Source: Armatimonadota bacterium
Lineage (GTDB): Bacteria; Armatimonadota; Zipacnadia; Zipacnadales; UBA5352
Assembly: GCA_034722055.1 (NCBI GenBank)
Contig: JAYENL010000225.1
Coordinates: 1 to 26,893 of the forward strand
Direction of reading: 5' to 3'
Length of the DNA: 26,893 nucleotides
This document shows, one piece after another, positions 15,201 through 24,553 of the stretch. The position numbers and the translations under genes were made by a program. Positions within the stretch are counted from its first letter, which is position 1, and each line of letters starts with the position of its first letter. The notes beneath the pieces are model-generated. The model did not search any database and was not told where the DNA came from. It was given only the letters and a program-made list of their open reading frames with translations.

Positions 15201-16074
15201 GATCCAGTCGCCGACCACGCCGGCGACCGCCAACGAGTCCTGGGGCGCGACGCCCGGCGCCATCGAGGTCATTCACGCCACCGACGTCGATGGCGACGGT
15301 GTGCGCGAGATCATCGCCGGCTCAACGAACATGCACCTGTACTGCCTGCGCCCCGATGGCGAGCAGGTCTGGGAGACCCTCAACTACGCGCACAGCCCCA
15401 ACAACCTGCAGCTCGCCGACGTGGACGGCAACGGCACGCCCGAGATCGTCTGCGCCACGAACTACTGGGAGACGAACGTCTTCACGCTCGCGGGCAAGCG
15501 CTTCTTCCGCGTCAAGGGGCAGGGCCCCGGGCTGGCCGTGGCGGATATCGACGGAGACGGCGTCACCGAGTTCGTGACGGGCTCACTGAAGGGCCCGGTC
15601 GCGGTCACGGAGTACGATCCCGCCCTGGAGTTCACCGACTTCCTGCACCAGCTCCCCGGGATCTGGGCCCCACAGCCGCAGTGGCTGTTCGACACCGGCG
15701 CGAACATCGATGCCCTGCGGCTCGCCGATCTCGCGGGCGATGGCTCGACGAAGATCCTGACCTGCTCGCGCAACAGCATCGTCTACGCCCTCAACCCCGA
15801 CGGCTCGGTGCACTGGGCGCGCTCCCTGGGCGACGGCGTGCGCGCGCTGGAGGTCGCGGACCTCCATGGGGACGGCGGCCCCGAGGTGCTGGCCGGCAAC
15901 GACAGCGGACAGGTCTTCGTCCTCTCCGCGGAGGGGGAGATCATCGCACAGGCGCAGGCACCGGGACTCGTGCAGTTCGTGCGCGCTCAGGACCTCGACG
16001 GCGACGGTGTGGCCGAGGTGCTGGCGGCCACGGACGGCCCAACGCTGAGCGCCTTCGCGCTGCCCGGCGGCTGA
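12295..16074 (+). CDS. Large secreted protein: heparinase II/III-like polysaccharide lyase module plus a C-terminal FG-GAP beta-propeller
   Basis: 1259 aa, GAGGAGG RBS, hydrophobic N-terminus. Motifs CFGDS, HGHADANQI and EHNVVVV as in heparinase II/III-like proteins. Eight DxxGDGxxE/K-type repeats from DVTADGEPEL to DLDGDGVAEV. Confidence 0.8.
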   Translation: MSMMAVAPVAISLFALLAQPPEPAPVPRGRALMTEIALVEDGRPTADIAVPDDAHHRALAERVREAVEEATGARLPVIGDGRALATLGERNLVVIGNLMTNAVAARLYHNYYVASDAAHPEAGLPELRTVHDPEALGIGVVFCGGSDAEGLAASVERLLAHIEPGRDLVLPHLVETETPDLAQPLTEEALAEKLADAGPPYGAVELLISQGLSYYRSGNAAYLEACRAAIATLLPALAQEEHLTNLYGIAYLGPVWDQIEEAPVFSDEDRAVVCGFLLGCVERCERLHALDAPADRPVHYGFAEKGGNLASLYLNRFCPGMPAAEEAARRLRHFYEMQSRFWKPANEANGYQTTYATEIALWCLTNGEFAYMDSGNLARQCEYQMNAIISNYPYNTCFGDSGGTLANTSTNLLRIGAWYYGDGRYQWFNDFLGWGGHDWNLHHSYATDVPPVEPADLYGVTVIPAEKWCYRAGADEPGAPPRERAYDKVVFRSRLDRDADYLLLDGLSNFTHGHADANQIICYTDQGMWALSTGGYMVKELAEHNVVVVFRDGQGGTGAVPLLADLELVADGRDVGAVRSTLHHYNGADWSRNILWAKGRYFLVIDEVFALEPAEFVLQNWWKLFRGPTQREGRTVVSGEETQCRISGLDTAAVAQRVSRYNKAQYQETVTASLRPGESVAFMNLLQCTKAPHDDAVQARAYGTTSATVRSPDGAVRLLGSRPLVGERGLAVDAQLYAVGPDGFTLVSGRALRCGRLLFGSDRPVTADCDLARGRATLQAHAPCRVTLACGEPGAVRLGTRRADGVAWEDGTVTLSLTAGRHCLRFPPPPPDTLAEVAAALTGAWSDSRVPPPAAPGLESDAPQMAELWRFDPGGDRSAEVRLLEQADVTADGEPELLLGAEDSRLRCFDRGGGLAWEFEAPGPVCSLWVGDLLGDGQTKLVVGTGTFPHAQPGEDIFILDAAGEQVRRIQSPTTPATANESWGATPGAIEVIHATDVDGDGVREIIAGSTNMHLYCLRPDGEQVWETLNYAHSPNNLQLADVDGNGTPEIVCATNYWETNVFTLAGKRFFRVKGQGPGLAVADIDGDGVTEFVTGSLKGPVAVTEYDPALEFTDFLHQLPGIWAPQPQWLFDTGANIDALRLADLAGDGSTKILTCSRNSIVYALNPDGSVHWARSLGDGVRALEVADLHGDGGPEVLAGNDSGQVFVLSAEGEIIAQAQAPGLVQFVRAQDLDGDGVAEVLAATDGPTLSAFALPGG

Positions 16075-16197: not shown

Positions 16198-17778
16198 ATG
16201 GGGGTGAGGGCGTTGCGACCTCAACACACTCGGGCCTGCCACCTGCTCCGCACCTCGCACCGTGCCTGCAGCCCTTCCCTCGCTGCCTGTTCTCTGCCCG
16301 CCCTCAACAACCACGCGGCGCGGCGGGTCAGCCGGATCGAGCACCGCCAGAGCGACCTGACCGAGATCGCCACGCTCGACTACGAGTACGATGGGGTGGG
16401 CAACCCCACCAAGATCGTGCGCGAAGATGGGGCCGCCACCTACTATTCGTACGACGACATCTACCAGCTCACCGGGGAGGCGCAGGTGGACGCGCAGGGC
16501 GCGCCGATCTTCGAGGCCCAGTACGACTACGACGGGGCGCACAACCGGACCGTGAAGGTGGTCGATGGCACGCCGACGTACTATGCCTACAACGAGGCCA
16601 ATCAGCTCCTGACCGAGACCACCGGGGAGGAGACTGTCTACTACTCATACGACGGCTGCGGGAACACGATCGCGAAGCAGGAGGCCGCCGGGATCACCTA
16701 CTATGTCTACGATGTCGAGAACCTGATGACGCGCATCGACTTCCCGGACGACGGGCACAGCTACTACAGCTATGACGCTGACTCGAAGCGTGTAGACCAG
16801 CGGACACCGGATGGCTTCCGGGAGTTCGTCTACCAGGGGCCGGATATGCTGAAGCTGCAACTGGAGCGGGACGAGAGCGAGACCACCGTGGCCCATTACA
16901 CCATGGGCGATGGGCTGGAGGCCATGCGGCGCGACAACGAGAGCAGCTTCTATCACTTCAATCACCTCGGCACCGCGATAGCGCTGACCGGCGCGGATGA
17001 GGCGGTGACGGATACCTACCGCCACGACGCCTGGGGCGTGCTGCTGGAGAGCACCGGCGCCACCGTCAACCCGCACACCTACGTGGGCCGCGAGCGCTAC
17101 TATCGGATGCCCAACGCGGCCATGTATCACCTCGGGCTCCGGGACTACGCTCAGGGGAGTGGGAGGCTGCTCACGCAGGATCCCCTGGAGCAGGCGGAAC
17201 GTTTCGCGTACTCGGCGAACCGGCCCACCACGTTCACCGACCCTAGTGGCCAATGGGGTTGCGACCCGCTAGCATGCGCGAAACGGAGCCGCACCTACGA
17301 CACGCCAAAGAGACCATTCGAGAGGACGTTCAAGGGCATCTGTCCGTCGGGATTCCCTGGGACTTACCATGTCATGTATGAGAAGTGGTGGGAGGTAAGA
17401 GAGGTCTGGAAGTGTGTTCCAGATCCTGACAGCTACTGGGTCTGCTACGGTAAGGAAGCTTGCCGGAGGGTGGACATCATACCGCACCGCAAGATTGGTC
17501 GGCGGCGCGGCAAGGATTGGTTCTGCATACCTGACTTCGACCGTATTCCTCCGGTCCCGACCCCTCCCGAATGGGACGAATGGCGCCGGCGATGCGGGCA
17601 TATCTGCCGAGTGTCGTGCGAGATCGTCGGCCTGATCGCCTGTGTGCTTATCTGTACGCCTGTCACTACCGTGCCTCCGATCCGCATCACATGTGACGTT
17701 GTTTGTCATGAGGTCACGAGTGCAGTTACCTGCGAGAGCTTGTGCGACGGCCTTTGCGAGGAGAACTGGCATTGGTAG
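16198..17778 (+). CDS. N-terminally truncated Rhs-repeat protein (cassette 1) with a cysteine-rich C-terminal toxin domain
   Basis: YD repeats (YEYDGVGN, YSYDDIYQLT, YAYNEANQL), Rhs core HLGT...DAWG...YHLGLRDY...QDP and the cleavage motif PTTFTDPSG (ends 17250), then a 175-aa tip with 17 Cys. Rhs similarity starts only at about 16315 and the true start is uncertain. Confidence 0.85.
   Translation: MGVRALRPQHTRACHLLRTSHRACSPSLAACSLPALNNHAARRVSRIEHRQSDLTEIATLDYEYDGVGNPTKIVREDGAATYYSYDDIYQLTGEAQVDAQGAPIFEAQYDYDGAHNRTVKVVDGTPTYYAYNEANQLLTETTGEETVYYSYDGCGNTIAKQEAAGITYYVYDVENLMTRIDFPDDGHSYYSYDADSKRVDQRTPDGFREFVYQGPDMLKLQLERDESETTVAHYTMGDGLEAMRRDNESSFYHFNHLGTAIALTGADEAVTDTYRHDAWGVLLESTGATVNPHTYVGRERYYRMPNAAMYHLGLRDYAQGSGRLLTQDPLEQAERFAYSANRPTTFTDPSGQWGCDPLACAKRSRTYDTPKRPFERTFKGICPSGFPGTYHVMYEKWWEVREVWKCVPDPDSYWVCYGKEACRRVDIIPHRKIGRRRGKDWFCIPDFDRIPPVPTPPEWDEWRRRCGHICRVSCEIVGLIACVLICTPVTTVPPIRITCDVVCHEVTSAVTCESLCDGLCEENWHW
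16524..17184 (+). repeat. Rhs core repeat copy 1
   Basis: Aligns with 18408-19086, and its 16755-17070 part aligns with 20189-20504. 16648-16838 is identical to 18532-18722. Confidence 0.9.
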
Positions 17779-17815
17779 CATAACTACGCTCTCGTCTGCA
17801 AAATAGGAGGAATAT

Positions 17816-18439
17816 ATGCGCGTAACAAGTAAGCGAGTCAATCAAGAGAAGACGAGTATGAGAGGACGTGTGATGTTCGTATTGGTGCTCACAGCAGCTC
17901 TTGTAGGCTGCAGCAGGCAGGGAGGGAGGTCCACAGACCTGCCGCGCGGCCAGAGGCATGCGCCTCCCGCACAGGAGCAGCAAGCCAAGACGAAAGGTAC
18001 CGACAGTACGCTGACTAACGAAGATGCCGCGGACCGCGTCATCGCCGATCCGAGGTACACGCAAGCCGCAGCGACACTGCTCGAGGCCCTGCGCCGCAAG
18101 TACCCGCGAATCCGCTTCGCCATCAACTGGGACAGGAAGCGGCTTCAGGTAGACATGCTGAATGTACAGATCCCCGGACCCGAAGAGCAGCCAGATGTCC
18201 GTACTGGAGGCCTGTTCCGGGATGTAATCCGAACATGCCTACGGACCCCATCTCCGCCCACTGAGGAGTTGTGGATATCGGCCCTGTCAGACGGCGGGAG
18301 AGGACAGGAACGTGGGCGATGGGCGGGCTACGAGCAAGCGGAGGGTATCGAGACCCCACATCCCGGAGACATGAGTGACAAGGCACTGGAGGGCCGGTCT
18401 TCCGCTGCGACTACGACGGGGCGCACAACCGGACCGTGA
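17816..18439 (+). CDS. Putative immunity lipoprotein for Rhs cassette 1
   Basis: AGGAGG RBS 5 nt before the ATG, 37 nt after the toxin stop. Signal peptide with lipobox LVG-C. Visibly lower GC than the housekeeping-style genes. Confidence 0.7.
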   Translation: MRVTSKRVNQEKTSMRGRVMFVLVLTAALVGCSRQGGRSTDLPRGQRHAPPAQEQQAKTKGTDSTLTNEDAADRVIADPRYTQAAATLLEALRRKYPRIRFAINWDRKRLQVDMLNVQIPGPEEQPDVRTGGLFRDVIRTCLRTPSPPTEELWISALSDGGRGQERGRWAGYEQAEGIETPHPGDMSDKALEGRSSAATTTGRTTGP

Positions 18440-19710
18440 AGGTGGTCGATGGCACGCCTACCTACTATGCCTACAACGAGGCCAATCAACTGCTGACCGA
18501 GACCACCGGGGAGGAGACCGTCTACTACTCGTACGACGGCTGCGGGAACACGATCGCGAAGCAGGAGGCCGCCGGGATCACCTACTATGTCTACGATGTC
18601 GAGAACCTGATGACGCGCATCGACTTCCCGGACGACGGGCACAGCTACTACAGCTATGACGCTGACTCGAAGCGTGTAGACCAGCGGACACCGGATGGCT
18701 TCCGGGAGTTCGTCTACCAGGGCCCGGACTGCCAGAGCTGGCCGCAGGCCAGCTCCCTGCAGCTCGAGCGGGACGAGAGCGAGGAGACGGTGGCGCACTA
18801 CACCATGGGCTCGGGGCTGGAGGCCATGCGCCGCGACAGCACCAGCAGCTTCTATCACTTCAATCACCTCGGCACCGCGCTGGCGCTGACCGCCGCGGAT
18901 GGGGCGGTGACCGACACGTATCGCCACGACGCCTGGGGCGTGCTGCTGGCGAGCACCGGCGCGACGGTCAACCCCCACACCTACGTCGGCCGCGAGCGCT
19001 ACTACCGCATGCCGAACGCGGACCTCTACCACCTGGGCTTCCGCGACTACGCGCAGCGGCTGGGGCGGTTCATGACGGTGGATCCTGTCATGCATGGCGA
19101 GCTCGCCGCATCCGATCTGGCTTGGCCAAGTGCGGACTTCGGTTGGGCGCAGGAAGCCGCGTCGCGACAGGACGTGAGCAAGTTGCGGCACGTCATGACG
19201 CTGGTACGGCGTTCCATCCCGGCCGTGTTCTCGCGGGCCAGGGTAGGCTCGCGGTCTTACACATACGCCCGGAACCTGACTCTCCGCCTCACTGACCCGC
19301 TTGGCTTGCAGCCGGGGAAGGGAGGAGGCACCACTTGCGAGGATGCCCGCGACGCTGAACTGGACACCGCGCTATGGGTATACGAGCAGATGAAGACGAA
19401 GACGAGGCAGTGGGAGCAGCGCGCATTGCAGGAGTGTAGGACGACGTGCCGGAAGAAGTTCCCGCCTACACCGGGGGATTTCGCCTATATCAGTTGCGTG
19501 CACCTGTGCGAATCTGCGGTAAGCATTGCTGCCGACATCTGGCGCGCTGGGATCTACCTGTACTACGCAGTCTCCATTGCCCTTGTTTGGGCACGCTACG
19601 CCGCTTGCATAGCGTGTAAGCCCATCAGCGATGAATTGGCGGAGATCATCCGCGGCTTGGAGTTGATGCTACAGGATCTGCGTGCCAAGCTCGGCCCAGG
19701 CAAGCCATAG
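18436..19710 (+). CDS. Orphan Rhs cassette 2 (core fragment plus a different Cys-containing hydrophobic C-terminal toxin)
   Basis: Near-identical core to cassette 1 from 18408. Motifs RFMTVDP and YTYARNLTLRLTDPLG (ends 19305), then a 134-aa unique tip. Confidence 0.85.
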   Translation: MKVVDGTPTYYAYNEANQLLTETTGEETVYYSYDGCGNTIAKQEAAGITYYVYDVENLMTRIDFPDDGHSYYSYDADSKRVDQRTPDGFREFVYQGPDCQSWPQASSLQLERDESEETVAHYTMGSGLEAMRRDSTSSFYHFNHLGTALALTAADGAVTDTYRHDAWGVLLASTGATVNPHTYVGRERYYRMPNADLYHLGFRDYAQRLGRFMTVDPVMHGELAASDLAWPSADFGWAQEAASRQDVSKLRHVMTLVRRSIPAVFSRARVGSRSYTYARNLTLRLTDPLGLQPGKGGGTTCEDARDAELDTALWVYEQMKTKTRQWEQRALQECRTTCRKKFPPTPGDFAYISCVHLCESAVSIAADIWRAGIYLYYAVSIALVWARYAACIACKPISDELAEIIRGLELMLQDLRAKLGPGKP

Positions 19711-19728: not shown

Positions 19729-20160
19729 GTGCGTACGGCAATCGTGATCGTATCAGCCGCAATCGCGTGGCTGCTGGTTCTCGCGATCGCCACACAACCG
19801 CTGATCGCTGCGTCCGAAGGCGCCCGCGCAGGACCATCGCTGGCATTCGCCTATCTCGCCTTCGTCGCCGCGCTCTCTCTCGTTGCGGGCCTCGCGGTTG
19901 GGCGTCTCGGATCGACGAGCCACTGGTCGGGTGCCATACTGGGCCTTGTGCTGGCGGGAGGCATGATGCTTCTGGTTCTCGCTGCTGCCGCGGGCCTGCC
20001 CGTGCCCGGGTTGTTGAGTGTCGGCATCGTCGTCGTGACCTTGATCATCCCAAGTGCCTGGTGCGGCGCGTGGCTTGGCAGTCGCCGCCACCGTGGGTCT
20101 GAGGATGAACAGAGGGGCGTGCCCGAGGTGTTTAACTCGAAAAGCACGCGACGGTCCTGA
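19729..20160 (+). CDS. Putative membrane immunity protein (about 4 TM helices) for Rhs cassette 2
   Basis: GGAGG RBS and a GTG start 18 nt after the toxin stop. Four hydrophobic segments. Confidence 0.72.
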   Translation: MRTAIVIVSAAIAWLLVLAIATQPLIAASEGARAGPSLAFAYLAFVAALSLVAGLAVGRLGSTSHWSGAILGLVLAGGMMLLVLAAAAGLPVPGLLSVGIVVVTLIIPSAWCGAWLGSRRHRGSEDEQRGVPEVFNSKSTRRS

Positions 20161-20188
20161 CAGCGCCCACCGCCTTCGCGGCGGGCGC

Positions 20189-20504
20189 GCACAGTTACTA
20201 CTCCTACGACGCTGATTCGAAGCGGGTAGACCAGCGGACCGCGGACGGATTCCGGGAGTTCGTGTATCAGGGGCCGGACATGCTGAAGCTGCAACTGGAG
20301 CGCGACGAGAGCGAGGAGACGGTGGCGCACTACACCATGGGCTCGGGGCTGGAGGCGATGCGCCGCGACAGCACGAGCAGCTTCTACCACTTCAACCATC
20401 TGGGCACGACGCTGGCGCTGACCGGCGCGGACGAGGCGGTCAGTGATACGTATCGCCACGACGCGTGGGGCGTTTTGCTGGCGAGCACCGGCAGCACCGT
20501 CAAT
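20189..20504 (+). pseudogene. Rhs core fragment (cassette 3) with no DPxG motif or toxin
   Basis: 316 nt collinear with 16755-17070 (HSYYSYDADSKRVDQRT...DAWGVLLASTGSTVN). Similarity then ends abruptly. Confidence 0.85.
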
Positions 20505-20798
20505 ACTTGGGATGAGTGTGTGTGGCATGAGTCCGACGGGAACACGCTCAGCGCTGGCTCATAGTAAGAGTACCGTACCGTGATTTCGAAAACGCCTGAC
20601 CTGCTCGGGGCCACATCTGCTGCCCGCCGAGCCCGCCGAGGATTTCCCGGGCGAGATCTTCCGCCAAGTCAGCTACTCTGGGTCGCGATGTACTCCTGCA
20701 TCTTCTTCGGACCGGCCCACCACTGCGCTGAGATGGGCCAGATAACGGCGCCGAAGCGGGGCCCCGGTAGTTCGAACAGCCATCAGGAGAGGTCAACT

Positions 20799-23700
20799 AT
20801 GCGTCTTAGGACTCTCGCCTCGATCGCGGTGCTATGTATCGCCGCGCCGGTGCCGGCCGCGGAGCAGGGCGATGTTCTGCTGTATCTGCCACTGGACGGG
20901 AGCGTGCAGCCCCGCATCGCCGCCGAGCCCACCGAGGTGTCGGTGAGCGGCCCAGAGGAGTACGCTGAGGGGATGATCGGCCGGGCGCTGGTGGTCGGCG
21001 ACGGGGCCGCCCAGCTTGAGCTGCCTGCGAAGGGCAATGTTCTGGCCGAGCGCGGCACCGTTGAGATGTGGGTCTGCCCCTTGGACTGGAGTGGAGGCGA
21101 CAGCAAGTTCCACGAGTTCTTCGCGACCTCCGGGGAGGGCTGGATCCTGCTCTACAAGTACCTCTCCCCGGGCAGGCTGCTGTTTTTGATGGCTGATGAC
21201 CGCGCGGCTCAGAGCTGGATGACCGCCGCGGCCAACATCCGCGACTGGGAGCCCGGGCAGTGGCACCACATCGCCGCGACCTGGCGCACCGGGGAGATCG
21301 CCGTCTACGTCGAACGTCAGCAAGCCGCCTCCGTCCCGGAAGCCCCGCTGTCGCCGGACGTGGGCGAGGTCATACAGCTCGGCGACCGACCGTGGCATAT
21401 CGAGCGCGATGCCCGCACGCTCATCGACGAGGTGGTCGTCTATCGACGCGCCCTGGCGGCCGCGGAAGTCGAGGCGTCGTACCGGCGCGCGCAGCCGATC
21501 GCACCCTCGGACCGTCCGCTGGTGATGCTGGGGCCCGGCGAGGCCCCCACGATCGACGGGCAGATGGATCAGGACGAATGGAACTCGGCCTGCGCGGTGA
21601 CGGGATTCGTGGACAACATTACGGGGGAGGTCGCGCGGCGCCACACGTGGGCCTACCTGGCGCGCGACGATGATGCGCTCTCCCTGGCATTCCTCAGCGA
21701 GCTGCCTGAGGGCGGCCTGGTGGACACCGTGCGCGAGGCGGATGGCCCGGTGTGGCATGACGACGCCATCGAGGTGTTCATCGATCCCAGCGCCGGTGTC
21801 GAGCGCGACGCCTACTACCACCTCATCGTCAACCCCTCCGGCGTTTGCTACACCTCGCGTGGCAAGGACAGCCCTGAGCGCTGGAGCCCTGACCTTCGCG
21901 TGGCGTCCGACGTGTCGGCCGACGTGTGGATGGTGGAGATCGCCATCCCCTGGGAGGACCTGGGCGGGCCGCCGGAGGAGGGAGAGACCTGGGGACTCAA
22001 TCTCTGCCGCGATTGGCAGAAGCCGACGCAATGGACCTCCTGGGCGCACGTGCGCAACTTCCACGATTCAGGCGGATACGGCCGACTGGTGTTCGCTGAG
22101 GCGCCCTTCGTCCAGGTGGTGGAGCTCGGCCGGCTGGAGCGAGGCCAGCTCAGGCTCACGGGTCACACTCGGGGCGCCGCAGCCAGAGAGGTGGTCCGCG
22201 TTCTGCGCCGTGACCGGGAGGTCTTCGCCGAGGAGATGGCCCTGGTGCCGGAGCCGGGAGACGTAGCCCTGTTGGACGCCGAGACTGACCTCGACGAGAG
22301 CGGCGCCTACCGCCTGGAGATCGAAGTCCGGCGCCAGGCCGATGATGCCCTGTGCTACTGGATGACCGCCCCGTTCACGTACTTCCCCGCGCTGCGGCTG
22401 TCATCCCGGCCGCGCCCGGACCTGGGAGTGTGGCGCCTGACGGCCGATGTCAGCGGCTGGCGCGGCCCACGCCAGGACCTGTCCGTCCGGCTGCAGACCA
22501 CCGATCCCGCTGGCGAGGTGATCTGGGAGGGCGCTGTCAGCGAGTTCGAGGGTGATCGCACGACCGCTGAGATGCCCGAGCAGGAGATCGGTGCCGGCGA
22601 GTACCGCATCCGCGGCCGGCTCATTGCGGATGGCGGAGAGGTGGCCGACGCGGAGATTACCCAGGTGAAGCCCGATGTGTCCGCCTGGTGGGGCAATGAC
22701 CTCTACGAGGAGCTTGAGGTGCTTCCGCCGTGGACGCCCGTGCAGGTGGAGGGCGCCACGGTGCGGACCTGGGGGCGCTCCTACGAGTGGGACGGCCCCC
22801 TGCCCGCGAAGATCAGCAGCCACGGCGAGCAGATGCTCAGTCGCCCCATGACGCTGGTCGTCACTACGGAAGATGGCGCTGTCCAGTGGCGGAACGCCGC
22901 CGCCTGGGTCGCGCAGCACCGTGATGTGTTTGCCGTCGTCGAGGGGCGAGCGGAGGGCGGCCCGGTGGCCGCGCGCACGCGCTGCACGACGGAGTTCGAC
23001 GGCATGACGCGCGTGGACCTTGAGTTGGTGCCAGACGGGACGGCGAATCTGCAGTCGGTCAGGCTCGAGATCCCCATGCGCGCCGAGAGCGCCACACTCA
23101 GACACTTCCAAGGCAGTCCCAGGAATGAGCCGGTCTCCGGGGCGATAGCCCCGGGGGGGGACAGGTCTGGTCCTCAGAGCGCTTCCGGCCCTACTACTGG
23201 CTGGGCGACGAAGAGCGCGGCCTCATGTGGTTCTGTGAGAGCGATCAGGGCTGGGTGGCGGGCCAGCGGCCGCCCATGCGCCTCGAGCGTCGCAACGATG
23301 AGGCCGTCCTCGTGATCGAGCCGATCGCAGGACCGACCACGCTCGATGAGCCCTGGGGATGGACCTTCGGGCTGCACGCGACGCCCGTGAAGCCCTTCCC
23401 TCAGCGGTGGCGCTCTCTTCGTATGCGAGGCGACGGTGGGCGGATCAGTATCCTGTGGTCCACGCCGTCGCTGCTGAAGTACTTCGGCTACGCTGAGGCG
23501 GCCGATCCGGAGGCCTTCGCAGCACGGGTTGCGGGTCTGCGCGAGGCTGCGCAGCTCGCCGTTCCCTACTCCAACCTGCGCATGCTGTCTGAGCAGAGCC
23601 CGGAGTGGCAGTACTTCGGCGCAGTGTGGGGGGTGCCCGGCCGAGCGGATCGCAGCTCCAGCGACGTCGGCGCCTTTGGCGCGCCCTTCATGGGCGTATG

Positions 23701-24553
23701 CCCAGCGGCTGAGGGCTGGGCCGACTTCGTGGTCTGGAAGAACAAGCAGTACGTGCAGACCTACGGCCTCGGCGGCCTCTATCACGACCACTCGGTGCCG
23801 GTGGCCTGCGACAATCCCCTGCACGCCTGCGGCTGGGAGGACGCTGAGGGCGCGCGCCACAGCCGCTTCCCCATCTTCGCCGCCCGCGATCTCTACCGCC
23901 GCATCTACGCCATGCTCAAGGACCAGCCCTACGAGACCTTCATGATGGGCCACATGTCGGGCCGCCTGATGATCCCGATGCTCTCGTTCTGCGACGCCTA
24001 CCTCGACGGCGAGCACTTCCGGGGTCGCGTGGTCGATGACTACACGCAGCTTCTGTCGCTCGACGCCTTCCGGGCCGAGTTCATGGGCAAACAGTGGGGT
24101 GTGCTCCCGTATCTTCTGCCGGAGTTCCCCGAGGGGGTGAGGGACGAGCGCGCCCCCACGAGGCACCTGATGTCGCTCACGGTCCTGCACGACACGCTGG
24201 TGTGGCCCTCGTGGTGCAACCGAGAGGTAGTCTTCGGGGTCCGGGAGGCCCTGGACGAGTTCGGCTACGTGGATGCACAGTTCCTGGGCTACTGGGACAA
24301 CAACGCGTGGCTGAGGCGCGGCCAGGAGGGAGTGAAGGTCAGCGCCTACACGAGGGATGGCCGGGCGTTGCTGATCGTCTCGAACCTCGCCGCCGAGCTA
24401 CAGGACATTAGGCTGGAGGTGGACGCCGCGGTCCTGGGCGTTGTTGGGGCCTCAGCGATCAACGCCGAGACTGGGGATCGGCTGCCAATCGCGGACGGGA
24501 CCGTCACGTTGAGCATCCCCGCGCGGGACCTAGCGCTGGTATGGCTGGAGTAG
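20799..24553 (+). CDS. Secreted LamG + CBM9-like + GH123/DUF6067-like protein, interrupted by a frameshift in a G8 tract at 23153-23160
   Basis: ATG 20799 with AGGAG RBS and a signal peptide. LamG (GTVEMWVCPLDW, WHHIAATW, IDEVVVY), CBM9-like (PTIDGQMD, DDAIEVFIDP, WMVEIAIPW, WGLNLCR) and TEFDGM motifs. Adding one G joins it in frame to GQVWSSERFRPYYWLGDEERGLMWFCESD...GLYHD, giving 1251 aa. Confidence 0.8.

Follow-up and report, generated by a model that had tools for sequence, protein, structure and literature searches.

Most characterized Rhs tips are enzymes that work in the cytoplasm. In the window (the whole stretch of DNA analyzed, 26,893 nucleotides long and one entire contig), the open reading frame at positions 16198 to 17778 (+) encodes an Rhs tip that ends in ten cysteines in near-mirror order, and we asked what such a tip could be for. 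An original prediction, made from the sequence alone, had likened it to a halocin C8-like bacteriocin on an Rhs carrier, proposed that nested disulfide bonds staple it, and seen in it a possible link between bacteriocins and Rhs toxins.

A 5'-truncated Rhs cassette with a two-module tip

The frame encodes YD repeats and an Rhs-associated core (TIGR03696, 38 bits; cutoff, 32.5) that ends in a DPxG motif and is followed by a variable tip (Table 1). The predicted Rhs carrier is thus present, although as a truncated cassette rather than as a whole Rhs protein. The shell N terminus and the delivery domain are absent from this first cassette, and the DNA upstream consists of the end of an FG-GAP protein (position 16074) and non-Rhs sequence. 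Since Rhs-like sequence begins only at ~16315, behind this unrelated gene, the cassette is truncated at its 5' end.

DPxG motifs in Rhs proteins are the cleavage site that frees the tip, so the DPSG motif delimits a tip of 175 residues in the window. This tip comprises, in order, a seven-cysteine N-subdomain, a proline-rich linker, and the ten-cysteine ladder (17 cysteines in all). Both the linker and the separate subdomain ahead of the ladder had been noted originally, and both were confirmed, the seven cysteines lying within 17260 to 17526.

Two further core copies lie downstream of the first, at 83 to 88% DNA identity. With its truncated core, DPxG motif, variable tip, small downstream gene, and tandem units, the locus resembles the orphan Rhs-CT/immunity cassettes known from polymorphic toxin loci. 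The source genome (92.7% complete) yielded no match to VgrG and no full-length parent Rhs, the longest Rhs frame found there being 626 amino acids (aa), so this cassette copy may be silent in its producer. Of 301 phylum genomes surveyed, 212 carried Rhs cores, many with 18 or more scored copies; no account of Rhs proteins in Armatimonadota was found in the open-license literature.

Table 1 Features of the Rhs cassettes in the window
Feature	Positions	Strand	Detail or basis
5'-truncated Rhs core	16315 to 17250	+	~310 aa of YD repeats and Rhs-associated core, DPSG at end; orphan cassette
DPSG motif, predicted self-cleavage signature releasing the tip	17239 to 17250	+	Sequence
N-subdomain of the first tip	17251 to 17544	+	7 Cys (17260, 17275, 17341, 17413, 17443, 17461, 17524); predicted long beta-hairpins
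Pro-rich linker IPPVPTPPEW	17545 to 17574	+	Pro stretch kept in homologs
Ten-Cys mirror ladder	17593 to 17757	+	55 residues; predicted helix-loop-helix hairpin with kink; hydrophobic; net charge -3
Lipoprotein, candidate immunity protein	17816 to 18439	+	LVGC lipobox, Cys at 17909; likely start, 17858
Second truncated Rhs core	18408 to 19305	+	88% DNA identity to first core over 678 bases
Second tip, unrelated to the first	19306 to 19710	+	7 Cys spaced 32,3,15,3,32,2 (mirror order, with one Cys left over)
Four-helix membrane protein, candidate immunity protein of tip 2	19729 to 20160	+	Hydropathy heuristic
Third Rhs core remnant, tipless	20156 to 20504	+	

DNA matching the window was found in four brine metagenome runs from one study, and no RNA run matched among the sequence runs searched. 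In run X3, one contig joins core 1 to core 2 across window positions 16647 to 18532, omitting 1,884 bases that hold the ladder tip and the lipoprotein gene; 191 letters at the junction fit either side, and the contig may stem from recombination that truly removed the tip or from an assembly artifact caused by the repeat. A GH123-like glycoside hydrolase gene at 20580 to 24553 is split into two overlapping frames (20580 to 23315 and 23225 to 24553), both of which match GH123_N; the split reflects a frameshift or an assembly error. At another locus (L031, G011:C94), a 2,309-aa Rhs frame lies beside a second long frame, and we take the two to resemble components of a Tc-type toxin complex.

The ladder family and a comparison with halocin C8

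The 55 residues originally quoted, with cysteine spacings of 3,3,7,3,12,3,8,3,3, proved to be the exact translation of 17593 to 17757 (+). Five mirror pairs arose in 1.5% of 200,000 permutations of the nine spacings, which is modest evidence when taken alone; conservation of the ladder, as judged from aligned homologs, is the stronger evidence. Searches of 1.8 billion representatives, a 5.8-billion set, relatives, and metagenomes identified six independent ladder homologs besides that of the window (26 to 74% identity over the tip or the ladder). Five of the six keep all ten cysteines, one of these five with an extra adjacent cysteine, and the cysteine ladder is thus conserved, in keeping with the prediction. 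In these five rows, the cysteines of both arms lie at offsets of 0, 4, 12 to 13, 16 to 17, and 20 to 21 from a loop of 10 to 16 residues. Across the whole family the loop measures 8 to 16 residues, and the mirror register is kept despite these loop indels. The proline-rich turn around which the symmetry was thought to run is, in contrast, not conserved, with one loop proline or none in homologs P0003 and L054. The last of these, the sixth homolog (positions 548 to 733 in G033), has lost C4 and C7, which are predicted nested partners, together. A histidine aligns at both places, although the alignment at C7 is ambiguous and this is one case only.

The window ladder is hydrophobic (GRAVY, 1.15), as are the ladder cores of the family (0.8 to 1.4; best 19-residue window, 2.1), and six of the seven cores have a net acidic charge. 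AlphaFold modeling of the ladder alone, from a seven-row alignment, gave a mean pLDDT of 85.2 (76.7 to 85.2 over five models), with helices at residues 2 to 31, 35 to 48, and 51 to 64 that form a kinked hairpin whose turn lies at the loop. This prediction, a hairpin of two hydrophobic helices, agrees with the helical hairpin originally proposed. The model of the whole tip was poor (pLDDT, 63) and drew the center of the ladder as a beta-hairpin or strands; its better part was the N-subdomain, built of long beta-hairpins. Foldseek returned nothing at an E value of 0.001 for the whole-tip or the ladder model, VIA-align returned generic hairpin rows only (best Z score, 7.2), and a match to a saposin-like domain (Z score, 6.2; rmsd, 4.0; 65 aligned; rank 35) was not above background.

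Disulfide-stapled helical hairpins are known from the twin CX3C small Tim proteins, the plant alpha-hairpinins, and saposin-like lytic peptides. Like these, the ladder has CX3C repeats and predicted nested pairs across antiparallel helices; unlike these, which have two or three pairs, it has five predicted pairs, and it shows no sequence link to any of them. Judging from its register, the hairpin is likely locked by five nested disulfides.

The ladder is a swappable module, since in homolog L072 it directly follows the DPSG motif without the N-subdomain and with another Cys-rich part behind it, and in P0005 the N-subdomain is present without the ladder and with a different C-terminal part instead. 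When 185,579 species genomes were scanned for the pattern, with a fixed 12-residue loop and a glycine required, 66 matches were obtained, 41 of them in open frames and one of them a real ladder (G228). In the phylum, matches occurred in 17 of 401 genomes, with strict ladders only in the source genome (G000) and in G228; among viral contigs, none of 121 matching stretches was a strict ladder. A related-locus search in genomes found none, and a plasmid tblastn search with the ladder gave one chance match only. By these sequence searches, the ladder family is small. Pfam had no family on the tip, the ladder, or the lipoprotein at E values up to 10, and the ESM Atlas had no usable match for the tip or the ladder. 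Our searches, in which fold comparison was minimal, recognized neither a fold nor a catalytic motif in the N-subdomain. Locus L015 was considered as a remote homolog of this subdomain and was unsupported.

The best NCBIfam matches of the ladder were TIGR04449 and TIGR04450 (E values, 0.01 to 0.04). Against TIGR04449, the ladder scored 7.9 to 15.4 bits depending on how the query was cut (curated cutoff, 24), and no ladder homolog reached the cutoff; an H. volcanii member, the positive control, scored 50.8 bits. The best score against TIGR04450 was 15.3 bits (cutoff, 27). Three of the four plasmid-borne halocin C8-like members compared have ten cysteines in the register 2,7,3,7,12-13,7,8,8,6-7, and the fourth has eight; the spacings of the ladder do not follow this register. 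Membership in the halocin C8 family, as originally suggested, therefore fails by test.

The ladder differs from halocin C8 in other respects as well. Its chain, whose N-terminal part is the Rhs core, has neither a HalI/immunity domain nor a Tat/Sec export signal; it contains a second Cys-rich subdomain, and its candidate immunity protein is a separate lipoprotein. Nevertheless, like the TIGR04449 and TIGR04450 domains, the ladder is a small, hydrophobic, Cys-rich peptide at the C terminus, ~55 to 75 residues long, with a CxxxCxxxGxxxC stretch and a hydrophobic center with a 12- to 14-residue loop. Its GRAVY value and charge are also in line with those of halocin C8 domains (GRAVY, 0.7 to 1.2; best window, 2.0 to 2.3; mostly acidic), its ten cysteines are shared with the H. 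volcanii and Halobacterium members, and release from a larger precursor, predicted for the ladder, is a further point in common. A Halorussus halocin C8-like domain (L228 to L231) has eight cysteines in the near-mirror order 2,11,7,14,7,12,5, two of the ten being missing, which hints at nested pairing in the halocin C8 family too.

The link between Rhs and halocin C8, to which the original prediction had pointed, is already in print: a preprint reports three RHS-bearing halocin C8 homologs in Nitrolancea hollandica (bioRxiv 10.64898/2026.07.27.741052, citing Makarova et al. 2019). The ladder tip is like these fusions in having a Cys-rich hydrophobic C-terminal peptide on an Rhs carrier and, when compared by the description given there, unlike them in that they pass the halocin C8 model by the preprint's method and the ladder does not. 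The preprint calls the halocin C8-type mode of action not fully elucidated. By inference from the shared features, the ladder may work like a halocin C8-type stapled hydrophobic peptide.

Could the ladder instead be a true but diverged halocin C8 domain in an Rhs tip, as in Nitrolancea, perhaps acquired from brine haloarchaea? The mechanism would be the same and the ancestry different; we regard this origin as very unlikely. In its favor, TIGR04449 and TIGR04450 were the best matches of the ladder, any TIGR04449 row appeared for just one of 29 unrelated Cys-rich tips, and the Halobacterium domain scored 14.8 bits with the ladder profile, above all 500 shuffles of both kinds, a null that is lenient for amphipathic helices. 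The H. volcanii domain, however, was marginal with this profile and the Halorussus domain failed against the shuffles, and in the reverse direction a profile of three halocins placed none of the seven ladders above shuffles. An Rhs tip in L225 (positions 695 to 1075, G068) scored 18.3 bits with TIGR04449 and 18.7 bits with the ladder profile and is a possible bridge between the two; the ten cysteines, the common CxxxCxxxGxxxC stretch, and a brine habitat (one study) are likewise consistent with shared ancestry. Yet every score lay under its cutoff, hhalign gave a probability of 5 to 6% over 16 to 21 columns, the halocin register (2,7,3,7,13,7,8,8,6) differs, and none of the 301 phylum genomes passed the TIGR04449 cutoff, the two weak matches both being Rhs tips.

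Cysteine spacing and number across the lineage

The mirror pattern was also sought behind other DPxG motifs, as the original prediction had suggested. We sampled 76 tips (from L001 to L072, L103, L225, L226, and G000) and later 182 more; the first 76 were drawn largely from the same order, with additions from G228, a metagenome contig, and the pair of loci with weak TIGR04449 matches. For the mirror count, tips were clustered, and five that had been found via the query or the halocin model were dropped. Among the 35 tips that had at least six cysteines, 5 showed four or more mirror pairs, against 0.36 expected (0 of 5,000 permutations), and 9 showed three or more, against 3.0 expected. Outside the lineage, 1 of 11 tips from other classes and none of 10 from other phyla were mirror spaced; tips there are Cys poor, and this outside set comprised 50 genomes picked by a cysteine pattern rather than at random. 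Lineage tips had a median of 7 cysteines (4.4%), compared to 1 to 2 (0.8%) in the other classes and phyla sampled, and this richness sets them apart from the orphan Rhs-CT/immunity cassettes sampled there. Mirror-spaced cysteine tips thus turned out to be common in the lineage, the next tip of the window among them.

An odd number of cysteines was found in 59 of 73 tips with any cysteine and in 40 of 48 cluster representatives with at least five (P = 6e-5 against the genome's 56% baseline), statistics in which kin are not independent and tip borders are set by the DPxG rule. Within the ladder family, the exceptions are P0003 and L103, with 18 cysteines. Odd counts elsewhere amounted to 18 of 26 (8 of 13 in other classes and 10 of 13 in other phyla), and since this difference was not significant (Fisher P = 0.24), the odd-cysteine rule may extend to Cys-rich Rhs tips in general. 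As their simplest reading, the odd counts suggest pairs plus one spare thiol. The C-terminal 330 core residues were searched for a conserved partner cysteine of such a thiol, and none was found.

These patterns bear on whether the ladder might bind metal (Zn or Fe-S-like), with C4, C5, C6, and C7 as one site and the six outer cysteines as a two-metal site. A ladder of this kind would fold without oxidation, which would suit an anaerobe. The paired CxxxC motifs opposite each other fit this arrangement, as does the alignment of histidine with both C4 and C7 in L054; so does the source genome (92.7% complete), in which no DsbB, VKOR, heme-copper oxidase, or bd oxidase was found. However, histidine is common beside these cysteines, and L054 carries the ambiguity noted above. 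Moreover, several other tips have a lone cysteine opposite another lone cysteine at a spacing of 10 to 32 residues, which a four-cysteine metal site leaves unexplained, the bias toward odd numbers points to pairwise use of the cysteines, and the faces between the cysteines of the ladder are strongly hydrophobic. Metal binding is therefore quite unlikely in our judgment, and we favor disulfide pairing.

The source genome does encode a DsbA-like thioredoxin, for which no signal peptide is evident, along with a CcdA-type protein. Like the failure to find the enzymes named above, the near absence of a bias toward even cysteine numbers in its exported proteins (56% versus 53%, by a rough gene model) counts against disulfides. 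Its proteome is rich in cysteine (1.25%) and acidic (14.4% Asp plus Glu). With no disulfide-forming enzymes evident in the producer, the bonds, if formed, would likely form after release. Oxidation by the target cell has a precedent in some incoming T6SS effectors, whose toxicity needs the DsbA of the target cell according to a published study (PMC5792426). The ladder did not match the radical-SAM CxxxC peptides (for TIGR04117/04118, one of seven ladder members at an E value of 1.4), and no radical SAM family was found among 19 window frames scanned.

No description of Cys-rich, disulfide-bonded, or odd-cysteine Rhs tips was found in the open-license literature, which does not prove them unpublished. 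What is new here is the small ladder family together with the lineage-wide mirror and odd-cysteine pattern; the type of carrier and the Rhs-halocin link were already known.

Candidate immunity and proposed mode of action

The lipoprotein frame begins 37 bases past the stop codon of the ladder tip. A homolog of it lies directly behind the homologous tip of L054 (31% identity over 114 aa; E value, 1e-14), and the next gene has a lipoprotein-type start at all four loci where it is visible (the window, L054, L103, and L072). The window and L054 have this lipoprotein family in common, and the neighbor in L072 belongs to another. Given that L072 combines the ladder with another family, the candidate immunity family goes with the N-subdomain or with the tip as a whole, and not with the ladder. 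In G038 (L445, positions 291 to 1169), a lipoprotein carries the candidate immunity domain twice, in tandem, and no ladder tip was present in the 290 bases before it. The linkage seen at the window and L054 makes the neighboring lipoprotein a likely immunity protein, with L072 and G038 speaking against a strict tie to the ladder. The next gene was exported or membrane bound behind 21 of 27 Cys-rich tips and 19 of 24 Cys-poor tips by a hydropathy heuristic, and these similar rates imply that envelope immunity is general here and not specific to the ladder.

The distribution of the lipoprotein families also fits an envelope toxin in which the harm would come from the beta-rich seven-cysteine N-subdomain and the ladder would be only an accessory stapled hairpin (an anchor, a stabilizer, or an entry aid). 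The immunity family is common to the window and L054, which have both subdomains, and not to L072, which has the ladder only. Additionally, the ladder occurs with two different subdomains, and the net acidic charge of most ladder cores is unlike that of typical lytic peptides, which are cationic. We nevertheless think an accessory ladder rather unlikely: halocin C8 domains of similar size, hydrophobicity, and mostly acidic charge act alone once mature, according to the preprint (bioRxiv 10.64898/2026.07.27.741052), and the N-subdomain, for its part, showed no recognizable fold or catalytic motif in our limited searches.

It is highly improbable that the tips are not toxins at all but serve kin recognition or signaling, as ligands sensed by the lipoprotein or membrane protein encoded next to them, or that the cassette is a decaying remnant. 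The neighbors are nearly all envelope proteins, of many folds; no known toxin domain was recognized, and the truncated core has no clear start or parent. However, the reading frame and all of its cysteines are intact and conserved across genomes, and the arrays of core, tip, and neighbor with repeated core remnants match the standard layout of polymorphic toxins.

We prefer a mode of action, to which we give about an even chance, in which the tip of the orphan cassette is recombined onto a carrier, cut at DPSG, released, and oxidized to a hydrophobic hairpin held by disulfide staples. This hairpin would harm the membrane of the target cell, and the lipoprotein would provide immunity. Rhs cassettes recombine onto longer Rhs genes, and Rhs tips are cut and released. 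By the same route, this cassette would recombine onto a longer Rhs gene, and its tip, severed after DPSG, would leave the shell outside the producer. The cysteines would be synthesized reduced and remain unpaired until release; in the medium or the target envelope, the predicted nested pairs, from C1-C10 to C5-C6, would then staple the helical hairpin as five disulfides. The 17th cysteine, in the N-subdomain, may remain free for an intermolecular bond. In the weakest steps of this scheme, the hairpin would enter the target membrane and cause leakage, as proposed for halocin C8-type peptides, and the beta-rich N-subdomain would bind the target or the immunity protein. By analogy with those peptides, the ladder is likely the membrane-inserting part of a putative toxin tip directed against the envelope of rival cells.

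A broader proposal, which we offer tentatively and consider on the unlikely side, is that the Rhs cassettes of the lineage form a combinatorial library of disulfide-stapled peptide toxins, each with n nested pairs plus one spare thiol. These would be shipped reduced, within the Rhs shell, by an anaerobic producer that has no disulfide enzymes and armed by oxidation in the rival's envelope; the spare cysteine would tie the tip covalently to the target, the shell, a partner, or the immunity protein, and the ladder would be one module of the library and a distant cousin of halocin C8.

Taken by itself, the single ladder is the smaller gain, since it adds one small family, hitherto undescribed, to a type of cassette already known. 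If the tips of this lineage are small, Cys-paired modules directed at the envelope, they would supply stapled antimicrobial peptides from a source not yet exploited, and the action of halocin C8-type peptides could be tested on them in a compact format. The odd-cysteine rule, in turn, makes a simple and testable prediction, namely that Rhs delivery or immunity involves a covalent step.
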